A stretch of 64,000 bases of DNA, taken from NCBI GenBank assembly GCA_951406725.2, contig OX597821.1, forward strand, positions 99,262,001 to 99,326,000, in the 5' to 3' direction. Below are positions 20,568 through 51,456 of the stretch, in pieces. A program made the position numbers and the translations under genes. The stretch's first letter is position 1. Every line of letters starts with the position of its first letter. Source of the DNA: Octopus vulgaris. Its lineage: Eukaryota. The notes beneath the pieces are model-generated. The model was given only the letters and a program-made list of their open reading frames with translations, was not told where the DNA came from and ran no database searches.

Positions 20568-21850
20568 CTTCTTTGGTATAGTTGATTGACACTTCTCCCA
20601 TACTAATAGATTCAGCAAAATATTTAATAGACATACCCTGATATTATCTTTTAGCTGTGCATCTAGTGTAAAAAAGATTTGAGTAGGTAGGCCTAAACTT
20701 GAGGCAGAGGCAGAAGCAGGCTGCTCATGCATGGGTAACACAACTCGTCCGTTGAACAGTCACTGTAACACGGAGACAGTTGTATACGAGGCAGAGGTAA
20801 CAGCCATAGGACCCAAAGAACAACCGAGCATGTAGAAGTATGTAGGGGCAACGGAAGGCTCCTTCAGAACCCGCCTTAACAACCAGAAATCCTCCTTCGA
20901 TATCCCAGAGAAACATAATGCAACAACACTAGCTAAGCACGTTTTGTCTTTGAAAGAAAACGCCACAGAGTACAGCATAAAGTGGAAGATCTTGGAGAAA
21001 TGCAAACCATACTTCAAAAGTAGTAGAGAATGCAGGTTATGCCTGGCTGAGAAGAGAGCAATTTTAAAGGGCACCCAACTCCCGGATGTTTACATAAATA
21101 GCAGGAGTAAGGTGTTTAATCCTTACCCACATGAAATAAATACGACCTATTGTACCCCCGCACCCTACCATGACTGCAACCACAAGTACCCGGTCTCGGC
21201 CTTCCACCAATGCCCTCGGGTCTGGCAAAGGGTTTGACCAAAGCATATACCAATGCACCCATTTACACACACGCACAGCCCTATAAGGTGGACACCCCAC
21301 AAAATAAACTGTCTTCTACCATCCCCAACATATACCCTTCCATACACATTGTACTCCCCACACAGATTACACACAGCACACTAACATAAAGCGCCCCCAC
21401 ACGCGAGCTTATCCTTTACAGAAAGAAAACAGACCAATGAACATAACTATATATACCTACACAGCCTGAAAAATGATGCATATGACACCACTACATATAT
21501 CACACATCCCATCACCACAGGAACACTACACTTAATAATACACACTTTCTCCCACAAACACTTCAAGATAACTCTTACCGGCCTCACAGAATACCCAACC
21601 AAGGGACATAACTTTTAACCCAATCCCCTGGCCCTTTTTCATTTCATCACCCTTTTCACACCAGTCGCTAATCGGTTGTGTTAATCCACTCCCCACAATA
21701 GAGAACAGTCGTCATATTCCTTTCCATATCGGTTAACTCTGATGAGCGTAAGGTTATATAATCGTATTGTTACCTAACACTCCATTGTATTCCTTGCGCG
21801 AAACCGATTGGTAAGATCAACTGTGACATATATATAATACTCTACTTTCC
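20568..21850 (+). mobile_element. decayed Penelope-like element: RT-EN linker, GIY-YIG endonuclease and 3' repeat
   Basis: KIFNRHTLILSFSC, CSC...PLNSHCNTETVVYEAEV...YVGATEGSFRTRLNNQKSSF, KWKILEKCKPY...CRLCLAEK...INSRSK; hammerhead motif downstream. Confidence 0.8.
21731..21821 (+). ncRNA. type I hammerhead ribozyme motif
   Basis: CTGATGA (21739-21745); stem II GCGTAAGG/CCTTGCGC; GAAA (21800-21803); stem III ACC-GATT-GGT; GUA triplet; imperfect stem I. Confidence 0.75.
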
Positions 21851-22484
21851 GGAAAATATATACATACATACGGCGGGTTTCTTTCAGTTTCAAATCTACT
21901 CGCAAAGCTTTGGTCGAACGAAGATTATAGCAAGAAGACACCAAAGGTGTCACACAGTACGACTGAACTCGGAACAATGTGGCTGAGAAGCAAACTTCTC
22001 AGCACAGTCTTTTTTACATAATCGATCTTTGGGAGGCATCTAGGGAAATTGTCAGTCATGATTTTTCAACAATCTGTTACATTGTCTTAGACGATCCAGC
22101 AAGGTTCTGTCAACCCCCATTTTATGACCATTTCGTGCTACCCCACACAGGGATTACTTTCTGATTTACAGTCACCTTCAAGTAATCTCTATGTCTCTGT
22201 ATCCATCTTAATAGTCATACACAGGAAGATTCGGCTAGAGCGTATCTCGAATGGTCCCGAGGTATACAGACGACTTCTTGCTGGATGTGTCGCCCGCTCA
22301 TCGCAAGTTTATCTTCCAGCTGCTGTCGGTACTTATTTTCGTTCTTGCTTAAGGACATGACGCATGACCTAAACTAAGAATCGCATCCATGCCTTTATGA
22401 TCGTGAGTTCAACAACCGAGTAATTCAACAATTACAAAAGAGATTCACGACAAGCGTAAAAGATTAAAAAACAAAAAGGATGGA

Positions 22485-22499
22485 CAGGAAATGACATCA
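22485..22499 (+). promoter_or_regulatory. possible ETS/CRE-like composite motif upstream of RCHY1
   Basis: CAGGAAATGACATCA resembles CCGGAAGTGACGTCA and lies ~220 bp before the ATG. Motif match only. Confidence 0.25.
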
Positions 22500-22716
22500 T
22501 ATGGTTTTGTGATACGGACAAATTTTTTTTTTCACTTTGCAAATAAATAAATATTTAAAAATAGAATACTTATTTTTAAACAAGAATTATTAATCATTTA
22601 TAGTTAAATTCATACCTCAAAAAATTTTTTTTAATTGATTAGTTTTTTTTTTCTTTAAATATAAATCTCAACTTTTATTATCAGGTGTTTTTTCTCCATG
22701 GTCTGTTATTGTCAAG

Positions 22717-22770
22717 ATGGCTAGCGTTGCACTTGACTGTTCACACTACAAGCGAGATTGTTCTTTAGTG
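22717..22770 (+). CDS. RCHY1: RCHY1/Pirh2 coding exon 1 (MASVALDCSHYKRDCSLV)
   Basis: Start context caagATGG, CxHYxRxC start of the CHY finger, donor GTG|gtaagt, phase 0; upstream acceptor-like tcag at 22681-22684. Confidence 0.9.
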
Positions 22771-24317
22771 GTAAGTTGTCAATTGAATAACACAAATAAC
22801 TTTATTTTGTGGACACACAATCTTTATAATTACCATCACTTTACCCCGTCAACGTTTCTTTTTTCTTTCTTTCTTTCCTAGTTATGTAAATGGTAGTAAA
22901 ATAGGTTATGGAAACTATAAAGGTAAACACATTAAGAGATATGAATATATTTTAAAGATATTTAGATTATGAAACATTATAAGGGTAAACAGGTTAAAAG
23001 ATATTTATGAGCACATTTCAATAATTATAATAATAACAATAACAATCGTTCATGGTTCGAACGTAAACGTTTAAATCGAAAAATATAATATCTCGATCCG
23101 AAATGATCGAAAAGGGAATATTTTATGATAGATATCATTATCCAAACTCCGTAGCTAAGTCAGACACTTTTATATGGAAACGTAGTTTAACAATTTGCTA
23201 TTAGTTTTCAATGCTTATCGAAGTTGTTTTTAAATCAAGTCAATCAGTTTTTCTAATTCGATCCCATATATGGTAATCAAATCTATTTCAAAATTGTGCG
23301 GAAATTATCTTTATTATTTTATTTATTTTTTCACCGAAAAAACTATCTTGATTAATTGGAATATAACACTTATGAAAATGATACATAGAGAATGCAGGTT
23401 ATGCATATATATACATACATACATATATATATATACATACAAAACCACATGAAAAATAACAAATCCAAAGCAAGGAGAAAAAATGGAAAAAGGGGAACAA
23501 AGAACAAGAAAGAAAAAAAATACATCAATTCATCACAAGTTCTTGAATTGGTCGCACACCACAACGTCCAACCTACTGAAGCAAGCCAACAAGCTCGTGG
23601 CATTGCCGCGGGCGATGGTGAGACTAAGGCGTTGGGACAGTCAAGCACTCTCACGAACGTCACCTGACACCTGGGTAAAGCGTGCCGCTAACGATGACAA
23701 CTTCGCCGTTTGCGGCCCAGTCCCTCTGAATGTCTCAAGTGCCACAGCCCACAGCCCGGAAGAAATGGTTCACTGCCAGGTCCTGCTATTTAAGGATTTT
23801 GTTCTGTTTGGCTACGAAAGGAGCGAGCCTCCCATTTACCGCAGCATCTAGGATGTGGGAGGCAGCAAAAGAATCACAGACTGTGGTGTTCCAGATGAAG
23901 CATCAACCTCTTACCCAGGGATAAAGGGTAAGACCATCACTTCTTGATAAACCTGTTGGATCCAGAACTGAGGAGATATTAACCTGAGCTAGGACCTGCT
24001 TCATGATTAAGTTTAAGCTCTATGTGATGAACAAAATGACCAGCATCTAGGTGGAAAGACAAACTGTTAGGCCTATGGAGTTAAGGGGCCTACCACAGTG
24101 ACATCTCAGTCCCCCACCAGACCTCAGCTCCCACTCTGAATGCAAAGGAGATGTGCAGTTCATTTAGGCTGAGTAGACTTCTAATGTTAGTCACAGGCAG
24201 GGCATCAATCCAGTCCCCTGAGAATTTTGCATTTGCAGTAAGTAGGCAACACCTTAAAAATTGATCAGGTTAATCAAAGAGAGAATTGAAAACGATGCCT
24301 AAGTACAGTTTGTCCCA

Positions 24318-24400
24318 TATCAGGTGTTTTTTCTCCATGGTCTGTTATTGTCAAGATGGCTAGCGTTGCACTTGACTGTTCACACTACAAGCGAGATTGT
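24318..24400 (+). repeat. exact 83-bp copy of RCHY1 exon 1 region lacking the donor site
   Basis: Identical to 22679-22761. Confidence 0.9.
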
Positions 24401-26789
24401 CTATCCTCAGCTGTGTCAGGAACCGATTAACCCAGCTCTCTCCACTGTAACAGAGCTTCATCCATCTCCCTGCTGGAACTAGAGCATGTTGAAAAGGAGA
24501 GGATGTTGTCTACCAAAGTGGAGGAAAGAAAACAGGGAAGAGATAGAGATGAACACTTAAGCAAACCCAAGCCCCCAAACTGCTTGTGCGAAGCAGCCTG
24601 GTCACAGGACTCTAGAGAGGGGTTGACATTGACCAAACATTCGAGGTTGTTGAAGCAATAGAGAGACTACAAGAATCTATAAGAGGGACTAACTCTGGAA
24701 AAAAAAAAAATACAATAACTTAGGAATTGACATGTAATTCTTAAGTATCAAAAAACCTTGGTGAGATTCAATTACCTCAAGGTTTTTAATAGTTACTCAA
24801 GGTTAGCCGTCTGAGATTGAAAGATGGACTCAAAAGCTCCATGAGAACACCATGCTGATGTGGGAGGAATTATGATAGAGAGGGAAGGAGTCTGTAACCA
24901 GGTTTACAGTCTGCTGATATGAAGCTTGATAGTTGAGGAGCCAGAGCTCGTATTTGGAACTACTGATACTAAGGCCCCTATGGCCAGGTTCTTCAGTCAT
25001 CATCCTTCCAGCTACAAGGACCTTATCAGGAGCCCCCCCCCCCCCAATAAGTATGGGGTGGAGGTCACTATTGGGCTTTGTGTGAGCAAATAGTTTTACC
25101 CCAAAGAACAGGGCAAATGTAGAGGGGTTCTCCAAGAGCTCAAGACCAGCATTACTGGTTAACAAGGAGATACTATCTTTGAGATGCTGAGATCATAAGT
25201 GATCAATCCCAGCACCAGAACCCACAAGGATGCAGTCACCTTCTTGACATTGTCAGAGGTGGAAATAGGTTATAGAAAACGGTGGGTCAGGCCAGTATAG
25301 GTAATCATCCAAATTGATTAAGAGCATATGTTGTGCACTGAGTGAGGGAGGACAGAGAGGATGCAAACATCCCTTTTAATGTTAAATTCATCAGATTTGG
25401 CATTAATAGCCTTCTTTAAGCTTGGTGATTGATCATTGTTCGGAGTTGTGCTGATCACTGACCTGACATGAACAGAAGTTGGCGTGGAATTGAACGTCTC
25501 AAATTGCCATTTTAGGGAAGTTGTGATGGATCCAGTATTCACGTTTGTCATGTGGCAAGGGACCAAAGGAAATAGGAAGGGTTTCTGTCAATCCGAAGTG
25601 TTGGACAGGCAGATGTTCTTCAACAGCTTGAGGAAAGCACAGGCGAGACAAGTCTGAGCTCTCTTGGGGTTCTGGTTGATGAGCTTCAACTTGGACAAGC
25701 TCTGGGGAGTTGGTGGCAAAATCCTCAACAAGGATCTGGACATCAGAGCTGAAGTGGCATTGGTTGCATGTGCAGTTTGAAAAACTTTTGGTTTGAATCT
25801 TAGCAATGCCAATGCAGCTCCTATGATAACTTAGATTATACAAGTGGCCTTCAAATAGCGACTTCTACAGGTGCAAAGAACACAACTTGGAGGTGAATTG
25901 GCAGCATCAGGATTAGAATTCAGATGAGGGAAGGGTGACGATGGAGGTAGATTCGGAGAGCTGGCTGAACAGCATTAACTCTGGCAGAAGGACTCGGATG
26001 AGGTACAGGAGGTTGATTGAGGCAGACTGGCTGGCTGTTATGGGAGTGTTGGGGGTAAATAAGGGGAGATGGGGCAGCTTAGGTTGAGTGGGGAGCTGGA
26101 TGAAGAGCATTAACACTGGCGATGGGGGTGGAGAACAGGAGGCGATGGCAGCAGGCTAGATGTTACAGGAGTGAATAAAGGGATGAGCAGGACTAATCCC
26201 GACCGAAGATGACTATAGAAGGGGTGGAGAAAAGATAGGGGATACATTTTAACCACACTAGAATGTGACGGAGGTGGAGAGCAGGAAGACGAATGCTGGT
26301 AGGATGTAACAAAATCGTTTAGTCATGCGGGTGTGTTGGTCACTCGCCGCATGACCCTAAAACGGCGGAACTCTGCTTTACGCACAGCATATAGCCCTTC
26401 ATATACTCTTTTACTTGTTTCAGTCATTTGACTGCGGCCATGCTGGAGCACCGCCTTTAGTCGAGCAAATCGACCCCAGGACTTATTCATTGTAAGCATA
26501 GTACTTATTCTATCGGGCTCCTTTTATCGAACCGCTAAGTTACGGGAACGTAAACACATCAGCATCGGTTGTCAAGCGATGTTGGGGAACAAACACAGAC
26601 TCACAAACATATACACACACATACGTATATACGACGGGCTTCTTTCAGTTTCCGTCTACCAAATCTCCTCACAAGGCTTTGGTCGGCCCGAGACTATAGT
26701 AGAAGGCACTTGCCCAAGGTGCCACGCAGTGGGACTGAACTCGGAACCATGTGGCTCGTAAGCAAGCAACTTACCACACAGCCACCTTT

Positions 26790-27215
26790 TATTTTTAAAA
26801 CTTTTCAGAAACTTTTTTGTGAATTTGTGTTCAACACACGAGAATTCATACGACTATGCAGGGGGGGAAAAAATGAACTCTCTCTCAAAAAAAAAACTTG
26901 TGATTTAAGGGGGTATTTAGCTGTTATTTTTAGCACATCTTACGACTACCCTATATCGTCCTCTTTTGTTTGTCTGACAATTGATGCTTTTCAATATGTT
27001 TCTCCCCATTAATACATCTAATGGTATATTGTTGAGATTTAAGCAAAAAGTCCGAACTGTCCGTATTTTAAACCGCGTTAAAAAAAAAAAAATTCCAAAG
27101 ATTAAAAAAAAAATTCCGAAAACTTAAAATTTTTTTTTCTCTCGTAGTCGTGTGAATTCCCTTGCGTAGAACACAAATTCACAAAAGTTTTCTGAAAATT
27201 CCAAAAAAATAAAGA
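26790..27215. repeat. diverged ~85-bp inverted repeat pair (MITE-like)
   Basis: ttttcagaaactttttgtgaatttgtgttc...gaattcatacgactatg pairs with cgtagtcgtgtgaattc...gaacacaaattcacaaaagttttctgaaaa. Confidence 0.6.
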
Positions 27216-27748
27216 AGTTACGAGGGACTATTTTCCGTGCGTACAGCACAATTCCGCCAAGTTTGCATTGAAAAACTTGGGCGTTGTTTTGATATAGGAT
27301 GGTCGTAAGACTATTTATTGCCCAATCGTTTCAGCTAAAAGTTTGAATGTTTTTCCTTTGACCCATTAATTAATTTTTTTTTTTTTTTTTGCTCATCGAA
27401 ATGGAGTCATCTCCCTTCACAACTTATTGCTTTTGGTTAGTTTTCTGTTATAATTTCATTTGTTTTTAAAAGAAAATTGTAATCGATGTATAAACAAATG
27501 TGTACAAACCATTTTATACAAAAAGAAAAAAAAAAATTCGGATAATCAAGAAGGGTCACTAATCAGTTATAGGTGCAGGCGTGGCTGTGTGGTAAGAAGC
27601 TTGCTTCCCAACCACATGGCTCTTGATTCAGCCCTACCTTGGGCAAGTGTCTTCTACTATAGCCACGGGCCGACCAAAGCCTTGAGTGGATTTGGTAGAT
27701 GGAAACTGAAAGAAGCCCGTCGTATATATATAGAGACCTCACTCTCCA

Positions 27749-29422
27749 GTGGGCCCTCTTCGCAACCCTCACACAAACCAGATCACTGACGACCCCAAGG
27801 AATGCGCGGAACTCATTGCCGAGTGCTATGCAAACATATTCACTGTTGAAAGTCAAAATGTACCATCTTCACCAACACTAACAGCGAATTCCATAACAAC
27901 TATGGAATTTACACCTGCAATGCTGCGACGTCACCTTCAAAATAAGCGCAACTATGCCTCCCCTGGTCTCGATGGAGTTACATACCTGCTTCTCAAACGT
28001 GGCAGGTACTTCCTTTTACACCAGCTTTCTATTTTCTTCCAGTACTGTCTCAACAATGGTGCTACTCTGGAGCAGTGGAAAACTGCCAATGTCATTCCTC
28101 TGTTCAAAAAGGGCGACCGCACATCACCTGTCAACTATCGCCCAGTCAGTCTCACTAGCTGTATTGCAAAACTGATGGAATCGTGTGTCAGAGAAACACT
28201 CTGGAACTTCTGGAGCTCTCACAGTCTCATCCGACCCTCACAATATGGATTTGTCCCTAACTCCAGCTGCAGTGATCAGCTTGTCGAGTTCCTTGAGGAT
28301 ATTACTCAGATCACTGACAGTGGTTCATGGGTGGATGTTGTCTACCTTGACTTTGCTAAGGCTTTCAACTCTGTGCCACACAAAAGGCTTATGGTGAAAC
28401 TCTCTGCAATGGGTGTGAGGGATGACCTTTTTAACTGGTTGAAATCCTTCATCCTCAGCCGAAAGGAGGTAGTCACAGTTCTAGGACAGCACTCTACACC
28501 ATATGAGATGTCATCGGGTGTACCACAGGGATCTGTCCTTGGTCCCCTCTTGTTTGTGGCATACATTAATGACATAGATGCCAATTTAAAGAATGCCACA
28601 GTATTGAAATATGCAGACGACATCAAGCTGTACCTTGAAATCAAGAGGACAGATCCTGATGTCTACAACTCTTTCCTGCAATCAGACCTAGACACAATGC
28701 AGCAATGGATCACAGACTGGCAACTGAAACTGGCTGTGGACAAGTGTACCGCCATGCATTTTGGGAGAAAAAACCCTGCGTCCACATACTCCCTCCACAA
28801 CACTGATATCAAGAAATCCTCTTGCGAGCGTGACCTAGGCATCACTGTCAGCAGTGATTTGCGTTGGACAAAGCATATTTCTAAAATTGTCAAGAAGGCC
28901 GAGGGTGTCTTGGCATCACTCAGCAAGACTTTTGTTAGCCGCTCTCCAGCCATCTATTTAAAACTGTATACAGCTATGGTACGACCACACTTGGAATTCG
29001 CATCATCAGTTTGGAACCCCTATCTTGCTCAGAACATTGACCTCCTGGAATCTGTCCAGAGACGTGCAACCAAACGCATACCCTCCATCAGACACCTACC
29101 ATATTCTGAGTGCCTTGTTTCCCTGGGCATGGATTCACTGAAGCTCCGGCGTCTGGCGACGGACTTGGTAAACACCCACAAAGTTATCAACCACCTCACC
29201 AACAACAACACTGAACACCTTTTTGATCTCCGTGTGTCTAACACACGTGGACATGCCTACAAAGTCAGAAAACAACACAGCTCCCATGACTTTCGGAAAC
29301 ATTTTTTCACGCTCAGAGTTGCTGAAGCATGGAATAAACTGCCTGCGTCAGTTGTTGACTGCCATGACACTGCATCCTTTAAGGCCCTCATGCTTTCCGA
29401 AATCCGCCGAAACTACACCTGA
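27749..29422 (+). CDS. reverse transcriptase of a 5'-truncated CR1/Jockey-group LINE (element ~27731-29507)
   Basis: Uninterrupted 557 aa with NYRPVSLTS, YLDFAKAF, GVPQGSVLGPLLF, YADD and ERDLG motifs. Short 3' UTR and (ATT)n tail; inserted into the (TA)n tract of a family A SINE; no endonuclease domain. Confidence 0.93.
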   Translation: MGPLRNPHTNQITDDPKECAELIAECYANIFTVESQNVPSSPTLTANSITTMEFTPAMLRRHLQNKRNYASPGLDGVTYLLLKRGRYFLLHQLSIFFQYCLNNGATLEQWKTANVIPLFKKGDRTSPVNYRPVSLTSCIAKLMESCVRETLWNFWSSHSLIRPSQYGFVPNSSCSDQLVEFLEDITQITDSGSWVDVVYLDFAKAFNSVPHKRLMVKLSAMGVRDDLFNWLKSFILSRKEVVTVLGQHSTPYEMSSGVPQGSVLGPLLFVAYINDIDANLKNATVLKYADDIKLYLEIKRTDPDVYNSFLQSDLDTMQQWITDWQLKLAVDKCTAMHFGRKNPASTYSLHNTDIKKSSCERDLGITVSSDLRWTKHISKIVKKAEGVLASLSKTFVSRSPAIYLKLYTAMVRPHLEFASSVWNPYLAQNIDLLESVQRRATKRIPSIRHLPYSECLVSLGMDSLKLRRLATDLVNTHKVINHLTNNNTEHLFDLRVSNTRGHAYKVRKQHSSHDFRKHFFTLRVAEAWNKLPASVVDCHDTASFKALMLSEIRRNYT

Positions 29423-29471
29423 TTATATATACACTTTAGATGAGTTGTAGTGCACCTGAGCACTGTACACA

Positions 29472-29513
<42 letters not shown>

Positions 29514-32500: not shown

Positions 32501-32560
32501 GCCAACCACTCCATGAGTGTAGTGGGTGCTTTTTACATGCCACCGACACTGGTATCACAG

Positions 32561-32608
<48 letters not shown>

Positions 32609-34119: not shown

Positions 34120-34875
34120 ATAATAATAAAGGGTAAAATTAATTAATAATTAATAATTTTACCAAGTAGTTTGGTATGTTAAAAGAACCATTATCGGTAA
34201 ACTTAAACAAAAATTTTATAATTATGAGTATAATTATAATTAGGGTTCAGCAAAAATTTGCTTCATCACATACCGAAATTTAGAAATAGCAGTTAAAACT
34301 AACTATTTCACTACCATAAGAAAATCTCTCAGACAGTAATACTCAATAACTCACGCAGGTAAAGAGAAAAAAAATAACAAATCCACCCAGCTTTGATTAA
34401 CTGTATACGCGTTTCAGAGTTAGACAGATGTGAAAAATGTAAAATCATATTTCCACTCTATCATTCTCCTCTTCAGTACAGTAATTCAAGATTTTAAATT
34501 TGAGAGCACTGCAAAAATTAACATACTTATCTGACCAGGTGACATCAGACAACGTATATCCAATGACCAGTACTTCTGAATTCAAACAGACGAATGAGAT
34601 CTCCTATTCCTCCTCACTCACCCAGAAAAAAAACTAGTTTACTTTCACTTCTATCTAAATCCAAAATGCGTATTCAGTTAATCAAAGCCTGGTGGATTTG
34701 TTATTTTTTTTCTCTTTACCTGCGTAGGTTGTTGAGTATTGCTGTCTGAGAGATTTTCTTATGGTAGTGAAATAGTTAGTTTTAATTGCTATTTCTAAAT
34801 TTCGGTATGTTGCGAAGTAAATTTTTGCTGAACCCCAATTATAATTATACTCATAATTATAAGAATTTTTGTTTA
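34120..34875. mobile_element. fold-back PLE-type terminal repeat (arms ~34205-34425 and ~34651-34874)
   Basis: The arms are reverse complements; the longer arm ends in (TTA)n on the minus strand and carries a hammerhead. Confidence 0.75.
34393..34489 (-). ncRNA. minimal type I hammerhead ribozyme
   Basis: Minus strand: ACTGTA CTGAAGA GGAG...CTCT GAAA CGCG TA TACAGT. Perfect 6-bp stem I (extendable), palindromic stem III ACGCGT, GUA triplet. Confidence 0.85.
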
Positions 34876-37739: not shown

Positions 37740-37859
37740 GCACCTTGCTGCAACAAGGTATATGTATGCCGGGTATGCCATGATGATGTTGAAGATCACA
37801 CTTTAGATCGGACTACAGTTGAGGAAATAGTGTGTAACAAATGCTCAACAAGACAGCCC
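37740..37859 (+). CDS. RCHY1: RCHY1 exon 2 (APCCNKVYVCRVCHDDVEDHTLDRTTVEEIVCNKCSTRQP)
   Basis: Polypyrimidine tract and cag acceptor, gtaagt donor, 120 nt, CHY zinc-finger motif. Confidence 0.95.
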
Positions 37860-40005: not shown

Positions 40006-40255
40006 ATGAACTCACTTCATTTGTTGGGTCTTCGTAGCCACAGCATATCTCTTGATGTCTTGGTCTTTTGTCATTGCCTCTGTGAGGCCCAACATTTGAA
40101 GGTCATGCTTGACCACCTCATTCCATGTCTTTCTGGGTCTACCTCTACCCCAGATTCCTTCAACTGTTTGGGAGTGGCACTTCTTCACACATCTCTCCTC
40201 ATCCATGACCATACCAATGCAAATGTCTCTCCTGCATGCCACATCTGATGCTTCT
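40006..40255 (-). mobile_element. RTE-clade LINE ORF C-terminal remnant (also 49910-50200 +, 58080-58290 -, 63600-63955 +)
   Basis: CVKKC...VEG..GRGRPRKTW.EVV..DL motif, preceded by RLHW.GHV..M in the 49910 and 63600 copies. Confidence 0.8.
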
Positions 40256-40571
40256 TATGTATATGTATTATTTAATACACACTAAAGGTGGTGAGTTGGA
40301 GAATTGTGAGCTCAGTGGTATTTCTTCTGGTTTTCTTTATGTTCTGAGTTCAAACTCTGCCGAGGTCGACTTTGCCTTTCATCCTTTCAAAAGTTGATTA
40401 ATTAAGTACCAGTTGAACACTGGGGTCAGTGTAATTGACTAGCCCCACCATCCCCACAAAAATTTCAGGCTTTGCACTTATATTAGAAAGTATTACATTA
40501 TACACACACATAAATACACACGTTACTTTGTTATTTTTAATTTTTTTTTCTTTTTGCATCATTTCTTTCAG

Positions 40572-40690
40572 GTTGGTGACCGTTGTTCAAAATGTGACAT
40601 CAAGTTTGCACAGTACTTCTGCGGCAAGTGTCGACTTTATGATAGCAATGACCTAAAACAATTTCACTGTGATGGTTGCGGACTCTGTCG
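40572..40690 (+). CDS. RCHY1: RCHY1 exon 3 (VGDRCSKCDIKFAQYFCGKCRLYDSNDLKQFHCDGCGLC-R)
   Basis: tttcag acceptor, CG|gtgaga donor, 119 nt, phase 0 to 2. Confidence 0.95.
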
Positions 40691-40725
40691 GTGAGAAGAA
40701 ATGTTTTTTTAGAATGTCCTGAAAT

Positions 40726-41180
40726 CATTATTTACATTTGACAGATATTTGTCCTCATCTTGTTTGTTGTTAACACGTTTCGGCTGATATACCCTCCAGC
40801 CTTCATCAGGTGTCTTGGAGGAAATTTCGAACCTGGGTTCTCATTCCTAAGGTATTTTTCGATGTTGTTGTTGCTGTTGCTATTGTTGTTGTTGTTCAGG
40901 TTACGGGCATATGGTGTAGTGGTTAAGAGTGCTGGCTACTAACCCCAAGATTCCAAGTTTGATTCCAGGCAGTGACCTGAATAATAATAACAATAACAAC
41001 AACAACAACAACAACAAAAATACCTTAGGAATGAGAATCCAGGTTCGAAATTTCCCCAAGACATCTGATGAAGGCTGGAGGGTATATCAGCCAAAATGTG
41101 TTAACAAATAAGATGAGGAAAAATATCCGTCAAATGTAAAAAATGTACATAATTCGTCATCTCTTAAATTTAGAACTGTC
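40726..41180. mobile_element. fold-back element with central tRNA-like head and hammerhead-like motif in each arm
   Basis: Arms ~40726-40904 and ~40972-41147 are inverted. A box tggtgtagtgg at 40912, B-box-like gtttgattcc at 40957. CTGATGA-A-GGCTG...CAGCC-(G/A)AAA at 41065 (+) and 40809 (-). Confidence 0.75.
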
Positions 41181-41767
41181 ATAAAATCATTTCTCTTTGT
41201 CTTTCTTACCCAATTATCTAAGTTAAGTTAAATCATTTAGTTGAAATTGACTTTTGGTGGTCCTGTATATGAAACCTCATCGTTGAAATTTTCCTAGAAT
41301 TGTTTTGTACAATTCTATATTGCTATGCCAATTAGTGTACAGTCTTCTATCTTTACTAAGTCTTTTCCACTACTTTGGAATGTATCTTTTATCTTTGACT
41401 TACTTCAGTCATTAGATTGTGGCCATTTTGAATCAACCCTAATTCTTCATTTTATTTGCTAACCCTGGTACTTATTCTATTGGTCCCTTATGCCGAATCA
41501 CTAAGTTATGAGGACGTAAACACCAACACCGGCTGTCAATCAGTGGTGGGGAACAGGCACAAAAACACACACACACACACAGATATATGTATGACAAGCT
41601 TCCTCTAGTTTCCATCTACCAAATCCACTCACAAAGCTTTGGTTGGCCCAAGGCTATAATAGACATTTGCCCAAGGTACCACACAATGAGATTGAACCTG
41701 GAACCATGTGGTTATGAAGCAAGCATCTTACTACACAGCTGTGCATGCACCTATAGTGAAGTGTTTG

Positions 41768-41815
41768 CTCTGCTGATGAGGTTATAATAATTATTTAACC
41801 AAAACATATTTGGAG
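41768..41815 (+). ncRNA. decayed minimal hammerhead motif
   Basis: CTCTG CTGATGA GGTTA..TAACC AAAA CATA TT TGGAG; deviations from a canonical motif are CpG-type transitions. Confidence 0.5.
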
Positions 41816-42930
41816 TTGTCTCCTACACCTACTAAAAAACTGATAATAATATTAGCCATTGACATCAGGAAGGTGAAGATCTTTTTCATTCTTATAATCT
41901 ACAATATACAATATGCAAAAGTAATATTCAATCTACCATTCACTTGAAAAGCAAATCACCATATAATCAATAGAAGTAATAGATTCTTGAACATTTGCTG
42001 CTTTCTTCTTACTCTGGCTGCTAAGTTTTCAACCTGTCTCATCAATTACTTTCATAAGTTGCTTCACAGTTTTTCGGTTTTCAGAAAATTTGTCTTGAAG
42101 TTAGCTACGGCAATAGCAAAATTATTCTGGGGGATACATTCTACTCTCACATTATCGGAAAACTCTTTCAAGTTCACTGGATGGTTTGGTATATGATCTA
42201 ACAGGAACAATACTTTGTAGGAATATATCTTTCTACAGCAGTGCAAATGAACAGTCTATAAACTAATTAAGGATGATGATACACAAGTGGGAGCATACAC
42301 ATACACACACTCTCTCTCTCTCTCTCTCTCGGTCACCTCACTAGTAATAGTGCCATGAAAAAAATCACCCAATACCTTCTTTAAAGTAATTGATGTTAGG
42401 AAAGGCATCCAGCTATAGAAACCATACCAAAGCAGATATTGGACCTCAGCACAGTCTTCTGGCTTGTCAGTTCCTGTTGAACCATGCAGACCCCATGCCT
42501 GAATATTGATGGATCGTAGGGTGACCTGCTGTGCTTGAGGAGACCTATTGAGTCAAGTACATCAACATCAAAATAAATATCAAATGGAAATTGTAGTTGT
42601 GATACCTGTGCTGGTGGCATGTAAAAAGCACCATCCGAACGTGGCTGATGTCAGTGCCGCCTTGACTGGCTTCCGTGCCAGTGGCACATGCACATAAAAA
42701 GCACCAACCGATCGTGGCTGTTGCCAGCTTCCACTGGCACCTGTGCTGGTGGCACGTAAAAAGCACCCACTACACTTGCAGAGTGGTTGGCGTTAGGAAG
42801 GGCATCCAGCTGTAGAAACACTGTCAGATCAGACTGGAGCCTGGTACAGCCTCCTGGCTTCCTGGACCGCGGCCGAACCATCCAACCTGTGCTAGCATGG
42901 AAAACGCACGTTAAACGATGATGATGATAT

Positions 42931-42970
<40 letters not shown>

Positions 42971-43393
42971 ATTATGTTTTTAGGTGTAGACATACTTGTG
43001 TTGTTAAGAAGTTTGTTTCCTCGCCACATAATTTCAGGTTCAATCTCACTTCGTGGCATTCTGGGCAGGTGTCTTTGTCTATAACACTGGGTTAACCAAG
43101 GTGAGTATATTTAGTAGAAATGGGAACTGAAACAAGCCTGTTTGTGTGTGCATGCATGTGAGTGTGTGTGTTGTGTTCTTCACCTGAAGTGATAGGTGGG
43201 GGTGTTACCACCATATACACAATGTCATTTCTTGTCAACTATGTAAACATGCCTTGACAATAAAAAATATTATCCTGTTTGGAAACAGGTGAGGATTGGA
43301 GACAGTTAGGTTATATGGTTGTAGAAAATCTGTAACTTCCTACAGTTGTACAAAAATATATACATACATACATACATATACACATATATATAT

Positions 43394-43657
43394 TAGAAGG
43401 TTTGGAGATGATGTACAGGTATTATATATTAGAAAAAATGAGGTGCTCAGAAATCTGGATGGTTTTATATTTAAAGATATTTATTAATATGTCACATGTT
43501 TTTATAAATCATATATTAGCGCTTGTGTCCACTCTAGTGGAGTCATCAGATTGGACACAAGCGCTAATATATGATTTATAAAAAACATGTGACATTTTAA
43601 TAAATATCTTTAAATATAAAACCATCCAGATTTCTGAGTATCTCATTTCTTCTAATA
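43394..43657. mobile_element. miniature fold-back relative of the adjacent Penelope terminal repeat
   Basis: Near-perfect palindrome centred ~43540; shares the terminus gaaggtttggagatgatgtacaggtattatatattagaaaaa with 43683-43725. Confidence 0.75.
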
Positions 43658-44234
43658 CATATATATATATATATATATATCGGAAGGTTTGGAGATGATG
43701 TACAGGTATTATATATTAGAAAAATTGAGGTAATCAGATCAGATGGTTCATATTTGTAGATATTTATTTATATATTACATTTTTTACATATATATCATAT
43801 CATATCATTCGGATTTCGGATTAGCGCTTGCTCCCATTCTAGTGGGCTTTTCAAATCAAATCAGTTGTGGGAAGTTTGAACATTTTATAGTTTTGTAGTA
43901 GTGGGTGAGGAGGAAGTGAGACAGAGAAAAAATGTGTGTATGTGTATGTGTGTGTGTGTATATGTGTGTGTGCTGTGTGTGTGTGTGTGTGTGTGTGTGC
44001 GCGTTTATATCTGAGAGTGAAGAAGTGTTATTTCCGTTGGTCTACTGGACCGCCTGTGGTTTTATAAGAACTTTGGCTGTCCATTTCGATGTCACTGAGT
44101 GTGTGTTGTGCATAGGTTGGCCTGGCAAATGTCATTTGGGGTCACACTTTCTATGATCATTCTGTGGAGGTGTGTGTGTCTGTGTGTCCATGTGTGTTTT
44201 TGTGTGCATGCGTGTGTGTGTGTGTGTGTGTGTA

Positions 44235-45237
44235 TTCCACAACATCCTCAATACGCTGCACCCATCTATCAATTTCACAATAGATACCAGCCACAACGAA
44301 TTTCCCTTCCTAGACATCAACATCAAAATACAGAACTCCATCGTCACAACAGACATCCACTACAAAAAAACTGACACACATCAATACTTAAATTTCCACT
44401 CCTGCCACCCATCCCACACAAAAAGAAACATCCCATATAGTATGGCACGACGAATATGTAGCATAGTAACTGATTCACAAATACGATTAATAAGACTAGA
44501 TGAACTCAAAAGCTTCCTCCTAGAGCAAAAATACCCCCTTAAACTAATAGAAAATGGAATCACAAGAGCATTAAAACTAGACATCACACAACTCAGGACA
44601 CCCAAAACAAAAAACAAAGAAAACACTATCCCTTTTATAAACACACACAACCCTGGAGTTACCAACATCTTCCAAACCATACATTCAAACCTACCAATAG
44701 CCTTACAGAGCCCCAAAATGAAAAACATATTAAACAAATATAGCATAAAAAACAGTAGACGACAGGACAAAAACCTAAAAAAACACCTAACAAGAGCGAA
44801 ATTCTCTTCAGAAACTAAAACGGAATTCTTTGCAAAAGAGTGCGGAGATGGTAGATGTGGGACCTGCAGCAACCCCACCTACAAATACATAGAGAGCAAC
44901 AGAGAGATAAGATTTAAAAATGGTGTCATATTCAAAGTAAATGCAGATATGAACTGCAAGACGCAGAACGTCATATACTGCATAACCTGCCCCACGTGCA
45001 AGGAGAATTACGTAGGTGAAACTGGTAATTCTTTGTGCCAGCGAGCCAGGATCCACCGACAACATATTCGGCAGGAAGAACTACGCAAAATACCACTAAG
45101 CACACACCTAGCTACATGTGGAGAAGGAAAATTTAAGATATTTCCCTTCTACAAGTGTCCGAAGAACGACACCCCCCTTCAGGAGGAATATGGAAAAACG
45201 TTTCATAGCTAAGTTCTCTCCCAAATTAAATGGCTGA
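44235..45237 (+). pseudogene. PLE ORF: RT C-terminus, Cys-rich linker and GIY-YIG endonuclease; one frameshift near the end
   Basis: HPSINFT, FPFLD, YKKTDTHQYL.FHSCHP, CGDGRCGTC, NVIYCITCPTCKENYVGET. A frameshift in the C-run at ~45172-45177 restores FRRNMEKRFIAKFSPKLNG*. Confidence 0.9.
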
Positions 45238-45706
45238 AACTTTACTCAACATACATTGAAGGACAAATCTCTGTGTGTGTAGATGTGTGTATTGCCTGTT
45301 ATATACATCATATTATATTATTATCTTTATAATTCACTTCCATCTTTACCTTTTAATTGTCACTTTAATTTTAACTTTCCTATGATATACAATTTTCAAG
45401 ATGGTATAATTTGGTTGTTAATATTTTATGTATAAGTCTGTGTGTGTGTATATATATGTGTTGGTATAAATATCAACACACAAAAATATTTTTTCTTCTC
45501 CACTTCCTCCCTTATTTTTATTTTTATTTTTATTTTAATTTTTTTATTTTTTATTTTTTATATTTTTATTTATTCTTTATATTTTTTATTTTTTTATTTT
45601 TTTATATTTTATATTTTATTTTTTATTTTTATATTTCTATATTTTTTAATTTTTATTATTATTTTTTTAATTTTCCCTTTTCTCTTTTTGTCTCTCTCCC
45701 CTTCTC

Positions 45707-45752
<46 letters not shown>

Positions 45753-45949
45753 CACACAGAGACACACACACACACACACACACCTCCACAGAATGATCAT
45801 AGAAAGTGTGACCCCAAATGACATTTGCCAGGCCAACCTATGCACAACACACACTCAGTGACATCGAAATGGACAGCCAAAGTTCTTATAAAACCACAGG
45901 CGGTCCAGTAGACCAATGGAAATAACACTTCTTCACTCTCAGATATAAA

Positions 45950-46001
<52 letters not shown>

Positions 46002-46079
46002 TACACACATTTTTTCTCTGTCTCACTTCCTCCTCACCCACTACTACAAAACTATAAAATGTTCAAACTTCCCACAACT

Positions 46080-46130
46080 GATTTGATTTGAAAAGCCCAC
46101 TAGAATGGGAGCAAGCGCTAATCCGAAATC
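46080..46130 (+). ncRNA. variant hammerhead-like motif (U3-A8 core) in the pLTR; mirrored at ~43811-43861 on the minus strand
   Basis: GATTTGAT TTGAAAA G CCCAC TAGA ATGGG A GCAA GCGC TA ATC CG AAATC. Confidence 0.5.
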
Positions 46131-46218
46131 CGAATGATATGATATGATATATATGTAAAAAATGTAATATATAAATAAATATCTACAAATATGAACCATC
46201 TGATCTGATTACCTCAAT

Positions 46219-46265
<47 letters not shown>

Positions 46266-46268
<3 letters not shown>

Positions 46269-46470
46269 GTAGTAACTCGGTTTTCTAACAACTCTGATCT
46301 CAAGTAAATTGTGCATTATATATACAGATAGATATATATAAAGCACGATTTAATCATGATCAGAGGCATTCATAAACTGAGTTACTACTGTATTAAATGA
46401 ATATGAGAAAGACAGAAGATAAAGTATGATTTATTTGTGATCAGAGTTGTTAAAAAACTGAGGTTCTACT
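46266..46470. mobile_element. Tc1/pogo-like MITE
   Basis: TIRs agtagtaactcggttttctaacaactctgatc / gatcagagttgttaaaaaactgaggttctact. Confidence 0.6.
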
Positions 46471-46541
46471 GTGTATATATATGCTCATGCACGCGTGCAC
46501 ACACACATATTTAATTTATTTTCCTATTTTTTTTGTTACAG

Positions 46542-46620
46542 GGTTGGTGGACGAGAAAACTATTTTCATTGTGAAAAATGTGATGTGTGCCTTTTGTTGA
46601 CTATGAAAGACTCGCATGAG
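46542..46620 (+). CDS. RCHY1: RCHY1 exon 4 (R-VGGRENYFHCEKCDVCLLLTMKDSHE)
   Basis: ttacag acceptor, GAG|gtgaat donor, 79 nt, phase 2 to 0. Confidence 0.95.
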
Positions 46621-46769
46621 GTGAATAATCTTTTGTTAAAAATTAATTTTCTCTCTGTAATTTTCTCTGCAATTTTTACTTGATAGTTTTTCTTAAAATT
46701 ACTTGCTTTTCTAACATTTAAGTCTATTGATTTCTCTGTACTAAAAAAAAGATTTAATCATTTTTTGTT

Positions 46770-48277
46770 ATAAATAGAGGCACTCAGCATTACCTGGGAA
46801 TTAAATTTTTCCTTATATATTGGAAGAAAAATGCAAAATACGTTGTATAGAAATTTGTTATTCTAAATTCAATTTATTCTTCAATTGGGATACAATTTAT
46901 TCTTTCCCTGGAGCAACCAACTTAAAGGTGACCAGTAGATTTCAAAGACTGACCTGGAGCTTTATTAATAGACATTGAAAAGCAAAGTCTCACCTGGAAT
47001 TGTGTTCATTTGAACTCAAATGGCATGTCTATTGGTTTGATTGGAATTCTTGGAATGAAAGCCTCTTCCCTAGAGGCACATCCATTGATGATGTCAGCTT
47101 ATGTTACATTAGGTTGTAATGTCTTCACAATCAACCTTGTCCCATCGCATAATTTAGGAGGATCTGAATTTCTTAGACGCATTATTGGGACTCCTACCTT
47201 CAGAAAAAGTTTATGTGGAGGAATTCCAGGTGGCTCAAGAGAATTAAGGAACTCTGTTGGATAATGGACAGCTTGATTTTCATGAAGGACTGAATCAACT
47301 GATTTGTACTTCTTAATGACTGTTGGAATCTTATTCATTAATTCATAGTTAATCCTTGCTACTGTCTCGTTTTTTTGGACCAAGAATTGTCCTTTCACAC
47401 CACCATTTATGTGAATTATAATTATTACTTAAGTCTGGAAAAATCCTGTTCTTCAATTCAGCAGGGGAATTCACCATGGTAGCAATATGAGCCAAACTGA
47501 TATCACCATTCCCATCAAATGGTATTTTTCCATTTCCTAGTTGGAGGAGCCAGGTTGAAAACTGTTTTGCACATTGGTCCTCATGTAATAAAGGTCGCAC
47601 ATTAGTATTGAATAAGGATTTCAGTACTTTATTCCATAGGTGTGAAGACCTAATGCATGCTTTTATTTCCTCAGATCTTGTTTGTCTCGGAATGACTGGT
47701 AATGTCTGTCTGAAGTCTCCTGGTAAAACTAATGTAACTTCTATAGATTTATTGTTGCATCTGGTGTCCTGTAAGGTCTTACCAAGAGCTTCCATTGCAC
47801 CTCTATGTGACATGGTGCATTCATCCCAAATGATAAGGTGACATTGACACAACACTTCTGGCGAACCTGGATCTTTGCTTATGTTACAAATTGGACTGTC
47901 ATTTGTGACCAGGTTTAGTAGTAATTTAAAAGCAGAATGAGCTGTTCGTCCTCCTAGGGAGAATGGTGGCAGCAAAGCCAGACAATGGTATAGCAACTGC
48001 AATTCTTTTTTGTTACATTACCTTGGAGTGAAGTAATGTTACAAATGTTTTACTTGTGCCACCAGAAGCATCAAGAAAGAAAATTCCTCTGCCTTTTTCT
48101 GGCAATTGTGGAATGCTGCCTGCAGGCATGCATACACAGACACACACACACACACACACAGGGTATCAAACATCAGATGAAAAAGACGTGTGTGTGTGAT
48201 AGAGAGAAAGCGAGTGAAGGGGTGTGTTGTCATTTATATGTACATAAATAAATTGATATATATCTTTCTTGTATGAA

Positions 48278-48325
<48 letters not shown>

Positions 48326-48962
48326 TGCCACTTATCACTCTCTCTCTCTCTCACACACACATAGAAAAAAGATGTATGCATATGTATTTATGTATGTACG
48401 TATACATGACACCACACCCCTTCACTCACACACACGCACACATTAATGTATACAAATGTTCATAGAAAAACACACGTGCGTGTGTGACTGACTACAAATA
48501 CATAGAGCTGAACGTGATGTGCAAAAAAAACATAGGTACAAGTTTTCACGGAAATTAATGAAATGTGCGAGTTCAGAACAAAATCAAACCTGGAGAGAGA
48601 GAGAGAACATTGCAAATAATGAATGAGATAAACATGGAATGAAAAAAATCGTATAAATAAAAGCATGTTAAAAACTATCTTGTACCAAATATTTAAGTTT
48701 GTAAACTTCGTGAATGTTTCTTACAGCAATTTATCGTAGTTGTTTACAAATCGCAAACATTAAAGTAGAGAGTGAGAGACTTTGCTGTTTTTACGTCAAT
48801 ACTGGAAGTTGACATTGAGAAACCTTTGTAAAGATGTGAATCATAAATATAAAGACCCTATTATATGTCTGAGGTCAAATCATTCATGCATCACAAGTAT
48901 AGAAGTGAAGCCATTTTCACGCAAAAAGTGAATACACACACATGTCTATTTCATATATTAGA
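46770..48962 (-). mobile_element. internally deleted Helitron with a Pif1-family helicase remnant (~46960-48060)
   Basis: GGRTAHSAFKL, IIWDECTM, GDFRQTLPV and LKVGVPIMRLRN..PPKLCDGTRL motifs. Putative 5' end A|TCTAATATAT at 48962; decayed 3' hairpin cccaggtaatgctgag near 46783-46798. Confidence 0.8.
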
Positions 48963-49162
48963 TAATTTATGCTTCCTTCTCTCTTTCTGTACATCATTGT
49001 CATAAAAGAACTTCGCTTACATATAGCTTATTGTTAACTTCTTCAAATTGCAGAATAGAATGATGAGGACAAAATAAAAATTGAAGTGAAATAAAGTTTC
49101 TATTTCTTTATGTGAATAAAATCTTAAATAGTTCATCTTTTTTTTCTTTTTTCTTTTTTTAG

Positions 49163-49266
49163 TGTCTAGAAAAAATATCTCACAATGAATGCCCAGTTTG
49201 TCTTCAGAATCTGCATACTTCCAGAAAACCTTCAAGGATCCCTAAGTGTCGGCATATGATTCATGA
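49163..49266 (+). CDS. RCHY1: RCHY1 exon 5 (CLEKISHNECPVCLQNLHTSRKPSRIPKCRHMIH-E), RING-H2 N-half
   Basis: Long T tract and ag acceptor, GA|gtaagt donor, 104 nt, phase 0 to 2; not in the ORF track. Confidence 0.95.
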
Positions 49267-49704
49267 GTAAGTTGGAGAAAACTTTTCCTTCTGACATTTC
49301 TGACAAAAAACAAAACAAAACAGGTATGGCTGTGAGGTTAAGAAGCTTGCTTTCTAATCACATGGTTTTTGGTTAAGTCCCACTGAAGAGCATCTTGGGC
49401 AAGTATCTTTTACTACAGCCCTGGGTCAACCAAAACCTTGTCAGTGGATCTGGTAAACAGAAACTGAAAAAGCTCATTATATTTATATATATTCTTTTAT
49501 TTGTTTCAGTCATTTGACTGTGGCCATGCTGGAACATTGCCTGCAGTCAAATAAATCAACCCCCAGAACTTATTCTTTGTAAGCCTAGTCCTTATTCTCT
49601 TTTGTTGAACCACTAAGTTACAGGGACATAAACACACCAACATTGGTTGTAAAGCAATAGTGGGGAGACAAACACAGACACTCAAATACATACATATATA
49701 TGTG

Positions 49705-49753
<49 letters not shown>

Positions 49754-51133
49754 GATGGGCTTCTTTCAGTTTCTGTCTACCAAATCCACTCACAAGGCTT
49801 TGGTCGGCCCGAGGCTATAGTAGAAGACACTTGCCCAAGGTGCCAGGCAGTGGGACTGAACCTGGAACCATGTGATTGGTAAGCAAGCTGTAATGTTAGT
49901 GTGCATACATGACCAAGTATAAGCGCCCTGAGAGAAAAGTTGGATTTAAGAAGCATCAGATGTGGTGTGCTAGAGAGACGACTGCACTGGTATAGTCATG
50001 TGTTGCAAATGAGTGAGGATAGCTGTGTGAAAAAGTGTCGCACCCGAGCAATTGAGGGAACCTGTGGAAGAGGTAGACCCAGGAAAACCTGGGATGAGGT
50101 GGTGAAGCATGACCTTTGAGCATTGGGCCTTACAGAGGCAATGACTAGTGAACGAGACCTTTGCAGATATGCTGTGGTTGAGACAAGCCAAGTGAGACCA
50201 TAGTCCATGGCCTATGCCAGTGGGTGTAACCAGCCCATTTATGTATATCCCTCATTCATTGGACAATAAACTTTGCTTGTGAAGACCTATTGAGACAAGT
50301 GAAATCAAAATTGCTGACGTGGCTGATGACAGTTCCGCCTGATTGGCACTCGTGCCAGTGGAATGTTAAAAGCACATCTGAACGTGGGGTGTAACCGGCC
50401 CACTTATGAGTACCCCTCATTCATTGGACAATGAACTTTGCTTGCAAAGACCTATTGAGGTAAGTGTAAACAAATCAAAATCGCTGACGTGACCGATGAC
50501 AGTACCAGGATGGACTACTCGACCTAAAGAAAATTCTAGCTGTGCCTCACCTGCAAGGTCATGCTCTGTTTATCTTGATATGAGATCACCATGTCGTGCA
50601 CTTATGGTACACCAGGGATGTGCTGGTGTACTCTTATCAGATGGGTATACTGGGCTTCGTATGTTTTATTGCAGTGTCACTTTGATGGCATGCACTGCTC
50701 TCTCACTCACTAATAATAATAATAATAATAATGTAATATAAATAAAATGTCAGATGTTTTGGTGCATGACTTTTGGCCATGTGTGTGTGAGTGTACATTT
50801 GTGTTTCCTTGTCGTAACATCAAGTGATTGTTGTAAATGAGCATCACTGTCATACAAGCTGGGTCGTTCATTCCCAGTATTCTGTGAGATGTCTAGCAAT
50901 AGGGAAATATTACCTTGCATGAAAACAGGTGAGGATTAGTAAAAGGAAGTGCATCTGGCTGTAAAAAATCTGCTTCAGTAAACAGTGTTTGAGCCATGCA
51001 AGCATGGAAAAGTGGAATTTAAAATGATGGTGATGATGATGATTATGATGAATTGGATTTTGCTGTGCATCTTTTCACTGTCTTTTAATTCCCTAGCATC
51101 ATGGGTTTGTATTCCTACAACCAACTATTATAA

Positions 51134-51456
51134 TTATGGAGATGTACTTGCATAGCAAGTGACCTGATCTGATACAAAAACAATTGCAGCATGGAAGGTG
51201 TTTATAAGCCATTTAAGAAACACACAAAATCTGTTAGATTCACTTCAACGTTTAAATTTCATTTGTCCAAATATTTTTGTCGCTTTGAGACCGCGACCTG
51301 TTCACTGATAAAATTCCATGCTGCACGGAATTTAGTCAGTGAACAGGTCACAGTCTCAAAGTGACGAAAATATTTTGAGAAATTAAATTTAAATGTTGAA
51401 GTGAATCTAACAGTTTTTGTGTGTTTTTAAATGGCTTATAAACACCTTCCACGCTG
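51134..51456. mobile_element. fold-back element with 12-bp TSD and G3-C8 hammerhead-like motif
   Basis: Palindrome ~51184-51459 centred ~51321; direct repeat caactattataa at 51122-51133 and 51457-51468; motif at 51332-51382. Confidence 0.75.

Follow-up and report, generated by a model that had tools for sequence, protein, structure and literature searches.

A 64,000-nucleotide stretch of the Octopus vulgaris genome (contig OX597821.1, positions 99,262,001 to 99,326,000 of the forward strand; hereafter the window) carries seven hammerhead-ribozyme-like motifs, and searches of the 2.8-Gb host genome place such motifs in at least six separate families of Penelope-like elements (PLEs), in whose pseudo-long terminal repeats (pseudo-LTRs) the pair between core positions 3 and 8 occurs as C-G, U-A or G-C. 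The motifs are predicted to self-cleave, and the inserted copies were probably pasted into the genome from RNA that was uncut at the motif. We likewise consider it probable that the hammerhead has been kept as a weak or protein-assisted ribozyme that does not define the ends of the insertions. Positions are numbered by the standard hammerhead scheme, as in PMC4209133, and the window copies are labeled by their cores as A (21739, plus strand), B (41065, plus), C (41773, plus), D (43549, minus), E (34476, minus), F (46088, plus) and G (51339, plus). All seven cores had been proposed in a sequence-only reading of the window, and each is present within 6 nt of the position given there.

The presence of these heptamers alone is weak evidence, because the same 7-mers are frequent in the window (CTGANGA 46, TTGAAAA 42 and GTGAACA 12 times). 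A structure descriptor is passed by three of the seven window copies (A, E and G); its strict form gave one match in the window against none in 20 shuffles, a form accepting any Watson-Crick 3:8 pair together with GAAA gave two against a mean of 0.2 in 20 shuffles, and a relaxed form gave five against a mean of 1.2 in 20 shuffles. Rfam searches returned no hammerhead match in the window at E ≤ 10 and none in a full G copy. When single copies were folded, a result that deserves little weight, both stem I and stem II formed in E, in F and in two G copies of full length, but not in the window copies of G and A. Because the descriptor passes three of seven copies and Rfam finds none, the case is carried by the families and not by the window copies. 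In the sequence searches the best 40 candidates were taken for each query, so the loci (L numbers) are biased towards the window copy; the pattern searches gave whole-genome counts, and the first 100 sites by position were inspected.

The sequence-only reading had treated the seven motifs as one family of PLE origin. The origin is upheld, and the C-G, U-A and G-C forms that it listed at 3:8 are real family states with real compensation; the single family was not borne out. Six of the window elements belong to large genome-wide PLE families, and C has one decayed relative.

Family G, the G3-C8 family, is represented by 8,592 sites matching an 18-base pattern (4 in the control), with G3-C8 in 95 of the first 100. 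Its stem I has 7 bp, the G10.1-C11.1 pair is present, and the predicted fold is that of a textbook PLE minimal hammerhead except for the swap at 3:8. Subfamily variants, taken as those common to at least 4 of 74 loci, affect none of 18 core columns and none of 10 stem II columns, compared with six of nine in loop II and 20 of 162 outside the motif; stem I has two shared variants, one of them an A-to-G change that preserves a U·G pair. The 5′ limit of G is sharp, at about 26 nt before the core, and the loci examined have no PLE frame upstream. We sought and rejected a longer parent nearly identical to G, as 30 of 31 and 24 of 24 exact matches to the 5′ end had no shared upstream sequence except inverted self-copies and (TA)n. 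Nor was a C3-G8 subfamily found inside G among 54 sites lacking both G3 and C8, 30 of which were read in context. Eight sites matching the G pattern carry A3-U8, somewhat above the expectation from independent decay; the three read in context have differing loops.

The search for versions of G with neither G3 nor C8 led to family H, which has C3-G8. G and H align throughout the unit, also downstream of the motif, with a score of 69.5 against a shuffle maximum of 60.5 (none of 500 shuffles scored as high), and they differ at 3:8 by two transversions that keep the pairing. Upstream of H lie remnants of GIY-YIG, indicated by a sub-threshold Pfam match (E = 0.003) and a BLASTP match to F (E = 2e-7), and H2, the youngest H relative, has an intact 1,312-aa frame in which pairwise similarity reveals reverse transcriptase (RT)-like and GIY-like segments and for which no Pfam match was obtained. 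At two loci (L528 and L529) H2 forms a 4,598-nt unit whose partial tandem arrangement creates pseudo-LTRs, and its two 3′ ends are at positions homologous to the two 3′ ends of G. Thus G, which has no open reading frame (ORF), is homologous to the pseudo-LTR of the H lineage and is best read as a passenger derived from it. H2 is a very abundant young PLE, with its single frame at L528:1478-5413 (minus strand) and further copies at L508-L527. No G-type motif was found behind 20 divergent GIY-YIG frames. Other cores came to light beside these. In a third PLE lineage, two of the three copies read (L411:1033-1085 and L413) have CCGAAGA (U4C) in the pseudo-LTR motif, and L410 keeps U4. An older family with a G-like stem I has C3 or U3 opposite G8 (L178, L180, L182, L186, L191, L195 and L196), and about 10 of the first 100 matches belong to one more small U3-A8 family, in which stem III is CGAAACGT (for example, C1:89536485-89536522). 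Other swapped-core families with the CGAAACGT stem III were sought and rejected, since 501 matches against 552 in the reversed control leave no excess.

The lineage of D and F contains C-G, U·G and U-A forms of the 3:8 pair. F is part of a young, autonomous PLE, for which ten of 150 protein matches fall in stop-free 775-aa frames. A 775-aa frame of this lineage has RVT_1 and GIY-YIG domains, the linker, CGDGRCGTC, fits CX2-5CxxC, and the copies are flanked by (TA)n. A complete copy (L266) has a 4,957-nt unit, partially repeated in tandem to form pseudo-LTRs, with a 557-aa ORF1 that overlaps the RT-GIY-YIG frame. The overlap of about 90 nt contains, in the ORF1 frame, a T TTT TTA heptamer (L266:1870-1876), which we take by the slippery-site rule to be a candidate −1 frameshift site. 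D is homologous to the F pseudo-LTR, and D-type motifs lie behind related frames; in the window, the (TA)n that flanks the older D copy (43662-43680) has received the F insertion, both copies being of one lineage. Both D and F read G12-C13-A14, giving GCAA and not GAAA, and are non-paired at 10.1/11.1; the window copy of D additionally reads A12.

A pattern for this lineage, which misses the youngest F subfamily with its one base fewer after A9, matches 1,405 genome sites (0 in the control). In the first 100, counted by eye, ten are C3-G8 (all with C13), nine U3·G8, 77 U3-A8 (four with C13, the F type) and four mismatched, so that 3:8 is pairable in 96 (87 Watson-Crick and nine U·G). Of 27 early-type sites, 9 have the U·G pair, against none of 63 late-type sites, again by eye; because the pair is confined to early-type copies, the U·G copies form a subfamily, the expected stepping stone between the two Watson-Crick forms. 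A pairing table was drawn from 24 hand-picked rows, 22 of them distinct, with the C·A rows L081 and L084 and the row L262 left out; 3:8 is paired in all 22 distinct rows, 10.2-11.2 switches between U-A (14) and C-G (8), and 10.1-11.1 is paired in one. Since the rows are kin, they attest to one or two events and not to many. In a tree built with positions 3, 8 and 13 masked, A13 subfamilies separate D from F, both of which have C13, and holding D and F as one group is rejected (p-AU 0.012 in the approximately unbiased test; 41 rows, the group having been named after the tree was seen). Position 13 therefore changed at least twice. Changes of A13 strongly lower the activity of isolated hammerheads; no paper on A13C was found in the literature searched.

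The ends of inserted copies, mapped for G in 27 loci that had been picked by a post-cleavage pattern (21 independent after removal of cargo copies), fall mostly away from the predicted cleavage site, whereas templates released by cleavage would give copies beginning at position 1.1. Eighteen of the 21 start upstream of the core and one each at 30, 58 and 64, the last being the cut site and, in that copy, a fold-back junction. Eighteen of the 21 end at ~150 or ~211; such a pair of fixed 3′ ends recurs from family to family, together with inverted 5′ copies and (TA)n flanks. None of 13 long F copies starts at the predicted cut, and two of them retain an intact 5′ motif. The description of these elements as ribozyme-processed is therefore not supported. 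Fold-backs make up 11 of the 21 independent G insertions, and the five asymmetric fold-backs noticed at the outset (B, D, E, F and G) indeed have an extra tail on a single arm in each case. At one G locus (L009), head-to-tail units are separated by (TA)n, and among 84 mapped loci no G copy runs directly from 213 to position 1. One G fold-back is lodged in a larger repeat (over 2 kb) that has a hairpin-CTAG at its end and includes a tandem array of 107 nt (L450, L452, L461-L463, L465 and L471; 7 of the 27 sampled loci); by the rule on that end, this repeat is presumably Helitron-like. These seven identical fold-backs were considered as re-mobilised units and rejected, being the cargo of this one larger repeat, and part of the 8,592 G sites are therefore carried copies.

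The families A, B and E have C-G at 3:8. A (1,675 first-look candidates genome-wide, canonical C3-G8) represents the 3′ end, truncated to varying extents, of an old PLE that bore an ORF; its stem III is a non-palindromic 3-bp hairpin, its motif lies behind homologous frames at 4 of 11 other loci, none of 150 scored frame homologues has a long intact frame, and the frame remnant in the window has no Pfam match. The attachment of two motifs to GIY-YIG-type frames, as first proposed, thus holds for F by Pfam and for A through its homologous frames elsewhere. E (500 first-look candidates) has a canonical core, and neither an ORF nor an upstream PLE frame was found in the loci examined. B, an ORF-less passenger with no ORF found and no PLE frame upstream in the loci examined, matches its pattern at 3,360 sites (0 in the control), of which the first 100 comprise 89 with the full-length GAAACG-U-H layout, nine with the 3-nt deletion by which the window copy lost the UH site in both arms, and two with a 2-nt deletion. 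The tRNA-like head, which together with (AAT)n precedes B, occurs at 1,678 genome sites and is followed by the B body in 12 of 25; conversely, a B-box motif lies upstream in 14 of 25 B loci and both boxes in 10 of 25. ARAGORN called a tRNA in none of seven loci, and Rfam found no tRNA. A head-to-tail run of about six B units with a period of ~215 nt is present at C2:2734860-2736029. For C, the genome search found no family, and its single relative shares 79% identity over 94 nt; its decay appears too far advanced for judgement, and it is unproven as a hammerhead element.

Across families, the closing pair G10.1-C11.1 is kept in A, B, E and G, and G12-A13-A14 in these four and in the intermediate subfamilies of the D/F lineage; A15.1-U16.1, H17 and a palindromic stem III are found in E, G, D, F and 89 of 100 B sites. 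The minimal type I layout claimed for all seven motifs stands at the family level; D and F (GCAA, 10.1/11.1 non-paired) and the window copy of B (no UH site) depart from it as described. The features are listed in Table 1.

Table 1. Features of the hammerhead-bearing elements in the window
Feature	Position	Strand	Remarks
Family A GIY-YIG-type frame remnant	20836..21237	+	Old decayed PLE; YVG motif in frame
A hammerhead	21731..21821	+	C3-G8; 8-bp stem II with long loop; GAAA; 3-bp stem III; A17
Family E fold-back	34155..34875 (left end approximate)		Tail on left arm
E hammerhead	34400..34482	−	C3-G8; 6-bp stem I; palindromic ACGCGT stem III; passes strict descriptor
Family B fold-back	40726..41180 (right end approximate)		tRNA-like head, (AAT)n, pseudo-LTR-like body; tail on right arm
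B tRNA-like head	40905..40979	+	A-box-like and B-box-like motifs
B hammerhead	41060..41102	+	C3-G8; without U16.1-H17; inverted twin 40772-40814 (−) with same deletion
Element C decayed hammerhead-like motif	41768..41815	+	C3-G8
Family D fold-back	43393..43661		3′ end of older F-lineage member; tail on left arm
D hammerhead	43515..43553	−	C3-G8; C10.1·C11.1 mismatch; C13; palindromic AGCGCT stem III; 2-bp stem I
Family F element	43681..46232	+	5′-truncated copy of young autonomous PLE; inverted 5′ copy 43681-44233; within (TA)n flank of D
F RT-GIY-YIG frame, 3′ part	44238..45209	+	CX4CxxC linker; frameshift near end; Pfam GIY-YIG E=1e-4
F hammerhead	46080..46130	+	U3-A8; G10.1·A11.1; C13; AGCGCT stem III; twin 43812-43862 (−)
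Family G fold-back	51133..51459		~213-nt ORF-less unit; left arm with ~60-nt tail
G hammerhead	51331..51382	+	G3-C8; extra G after A9; 5-bp stem II; GAAA; palindromic AATATT stem III; U17; twin 51262-51312 (−)

In the model that we favor, the PLE endonuclease would nick (TA)n, and reverse transcription would start at one of two internal sites 3′ of the hammerhead, leaving a copy with or without a tail; a second, inverted product would generate the fold-back. G, and probably B with its RNA polymerase III (Pol III)-type head, would borrow the PLE enzymes in trans. The hammerhead would be retained in the source elements, where it may cleave weakly, either after dimerising through its palindromic stem III or when assisted by the PLE protein, and this proposed retention would explain why 3:8 changed only between pairing states. 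Cleavage would have no role in setting the ends of the inserted copies.

Several observations weigh against this model. The tree does not resolve the placement of the U·G copies, two of the nine having enough flank, and a single founder event may underlie each change at 3:8, so that the copy counts are not independent tests of the pair. The six variable columns in loop II of G belong largely to one subfamily. Identity between G and H is low and the match of G to H2 is weaker, 4 and 5 of 500 shuffles scoring as high, so that the autonomous partner of G is one that we infer; for B and E no ORF was found. Among the autonomous elements, the youngest have the least canonical cores: that of F has C13, no 10.1-11.1 pair and, in its youngest subfamily, one base fewer after A9, and that of H2 reads C9 in 13 of 15 loci. 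Such a pattern is compatible both with relaxed selection and with help from the protein, since either the demands on the core are eased by the protein or catalysis is being lost.

The second of these outcomes leads to the view that the motifs are vestigial and non-catalytic, that any fold still kept serves the PLE protein as a surface for binding or dimerisation, and that the swapped cores spread by founder effect. We regard this as a lesser possibility. Besides the two young, highly amplified autonomous lineages, F with C13 and H2 with C9, whose cores differ at positions that are normally fixed, and the third lineage with U4C, it can draw on the UH-less form of B (9 of 100 sites), on the uncut motifs inside inserted copies, and on published work: catalytic mutants have no effect on insertion in vitro (PMC11167929), and good proliferation has been noted for elements that lack a canonical hammerhead (PMC8557442). 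Against it stand the pairability of 3:8, as C-G, U·G or U-A, in 96 of 100 D/F sites, the arrival at G-C by two transversions relative to H, the avoidance of the core and stems by subfamily variants of G, and the place of the 3:8 pair in the catalytically active fold (PMC3088659, PMC9901934). At the other extreme, all core variants, including G3-C8, the path from C-G through U·G to U-A, and the C13 and C9 of autonomous elements that would be active at present, might still cleave, with the PLE protein completing or stabilising the active site; this bolder proposal is put forward tentatively. The favored model and its alternatives overlap in part.

The sequence-only reading itself saw these elements as non-autonomous, ribozyme-processed passengers; in such a retrozyme-like model, hammerhead cleavage would free their RNA, and might lead to its circularisation, before it is copied. 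The lack of an ORF in G and B, the sharp 5′ limit of G, the head-to-tail G units at L009 and the B tandem run agree with this, and retrozymes have been proposed as PLE derivatives (bioRxiv 10.64898/2026.07.22.740005). The passenger status does hold for G and B, but F is a young autonomous PLE and D and A are ends of ORF-bearing elements; starts at the cut site are confined to 1 of 21 G copies, at a fold-back junction, and 0 of 13 F copies, and the junction of 213 to 1 is missing in all 84 G loci, the L009 units being separated by (TA)n. We therefore consider release by cleavage before copying improbable. It is far less probable still that G is a miniature inverted-repeat transposable element (MITE) of a DNA transposon with an incidental likeness to a hammerhead: its small size, lack of an ORF and TA flanks fit this, as do 10 of 12 bases close to the 5′ end that could pair with a stretch before the first 3′ end, but a MITE would not account for two alternative 3′ ends, variable 5′ truncation, one-sided fold-back tails or homology to a PLE pseudo-LTR.

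The favored model has close counterparts among known elements. The PLE hammerheads of Cervera and De la Peña (2014, PMC4209133) share the short stem I, the palindromic stem III, the pseudo-LTR position, an extra base after A9 (here in B, G and H), the many solo truncated copies and the opposite-strand pairs. The 56 motifs aligned there include three UUGA cores and no GUGA core, all with GAAA and none with the G3-C8 of G or the C13 of D and F, and the G10.1-C11.1 pair reported as highly conserved there is lacking in D and F. Poseidon PAc of Anolis (Frangieh 2024, PMC11167929) likewise uses two internal RT starts that produce an optional tail, inserts at AT-rich targets and inserts uncut RNA; its cleavage needs the PLE protein, and catalytic mutants insert normally. 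The few cut-site starts in G and F match PAc, in which uncut RNA is the insertion substrate. Unlike PAc, F has two overlapping frames and a CX4CxxC linker, pointing to the Neptune type. Endonuclease-positive PLEs of that type (Craig 2021, PMC8557442) resemble the F lineage in several ways: a linker of Zn-finger-like form precedes GIY-YIG, insertion is into (TA)n, an ORF1 that is optional and frameshifted is described, and copies can form partial tandems or carry an inverted 5′ copy and a one-sided tail. The cores found here deviate from the canonical hammerhead, and membership of F in the Neptune clade is suggested by its linker and (TA)n targets.

Among non-autonomous elements, metazoan non-LTR retrozymes (PMC7229834; bioRxiv 10.64898/2026.07.22.740005) resemble G as short ORF-less units with a type I hammerhead and kinship to PLE pseudo-LTRs, and PLE-derived passengers have already been proposed in both sources. 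Unlike retrozymes, G is mostly solo or fold-back, with no head-to-tail arrays, circular permutation or cut-set ends. The short interspersed element (SINE)-like hammerhead elements of Schistosoma, in which a promoter precedes the hammerhead (PMC6765202), are similar to B with its tRNA-like head and hammerhead body; unlike them, B has PLE-type tails and fold-backs, and its Pol III promoter is putative. The word ribozyme was not found in the available part of a recent octopus repeat annotation (PMC13282606).

Neither U3-A8 nor the fold-backs are new: U3-A8 in Schistosoma and a UUGAAGA row in Saccoglossus are in PMC4209133, natural U3-A8 hammerheads are also known from PMC3088659, and fold-backs are described in PMC8557442. 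Engineered G3-C8 works (PMC11167929, PMC9901934, PMC3884650); in PAc, C3G/G8C partly rescues cleavage, and the G:C swap is the sole rescuing double change in the CUGA region in PMC9901934. No natural G3-C8 hammerhead was found in the literature searched, which excluded Lünse 2017, the likeliest listing, and the Perreault supplements, and the form in G is likely to be an undescribed natural variant. What is probably new here, as variation on a known theme, is a high-copy natural G-C family with an identified C-G relative, a U·G intermediate, and C13 and C9 cores in young autonomous elements.

The window contains other features. A degenerate palindrome at 46268-46389 (74% self-complementary) adjoins the 3′ end of F and is possibly another old fold-back. 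Protein-coding remnants comprise a 418-aa frame of a C2H2 zinc-finger array (9248-10504, minus strand), a transposase fragment with a weak DDE_Tnp_1_7 match (12173-12658, plus), a reverse transcriptase frame of long interspersed element type (RVT_1; 27734-29422, plus) and a PIF1 helicase fragment (47349-48017, minus). A dispersed SINE-like repeat family recurs at 4189, 26677, 31735, 35895, 41634, 49798 and 62456.

These families offer matched natural variants for a direct test, namely G against its relative H, and, in a single lineage, D, the U·G and U-A subfamilies and F; for two of these variants intact enzymes exist. If G cleaves, it would be a natural example of a swap that, in the literature searched, is otherwise shown by engineering only; if F and H2 do not cleave despite their youth and amplification, catalysis would be dispensable for the spread of PLEs. 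As had been foreseen, searches based on CUGANGA miss non-canonical cores, which for G means ~8,600 sites in this genome alone. Should all of these cores cleave because the PLE protein completes or stabilises their active site, PLE hammerheads would count as ribozymes that depend on protein and whose supposedly "invariant" core can evolve freely; thousands of such ribozymes in each genome would then escape standard searches.

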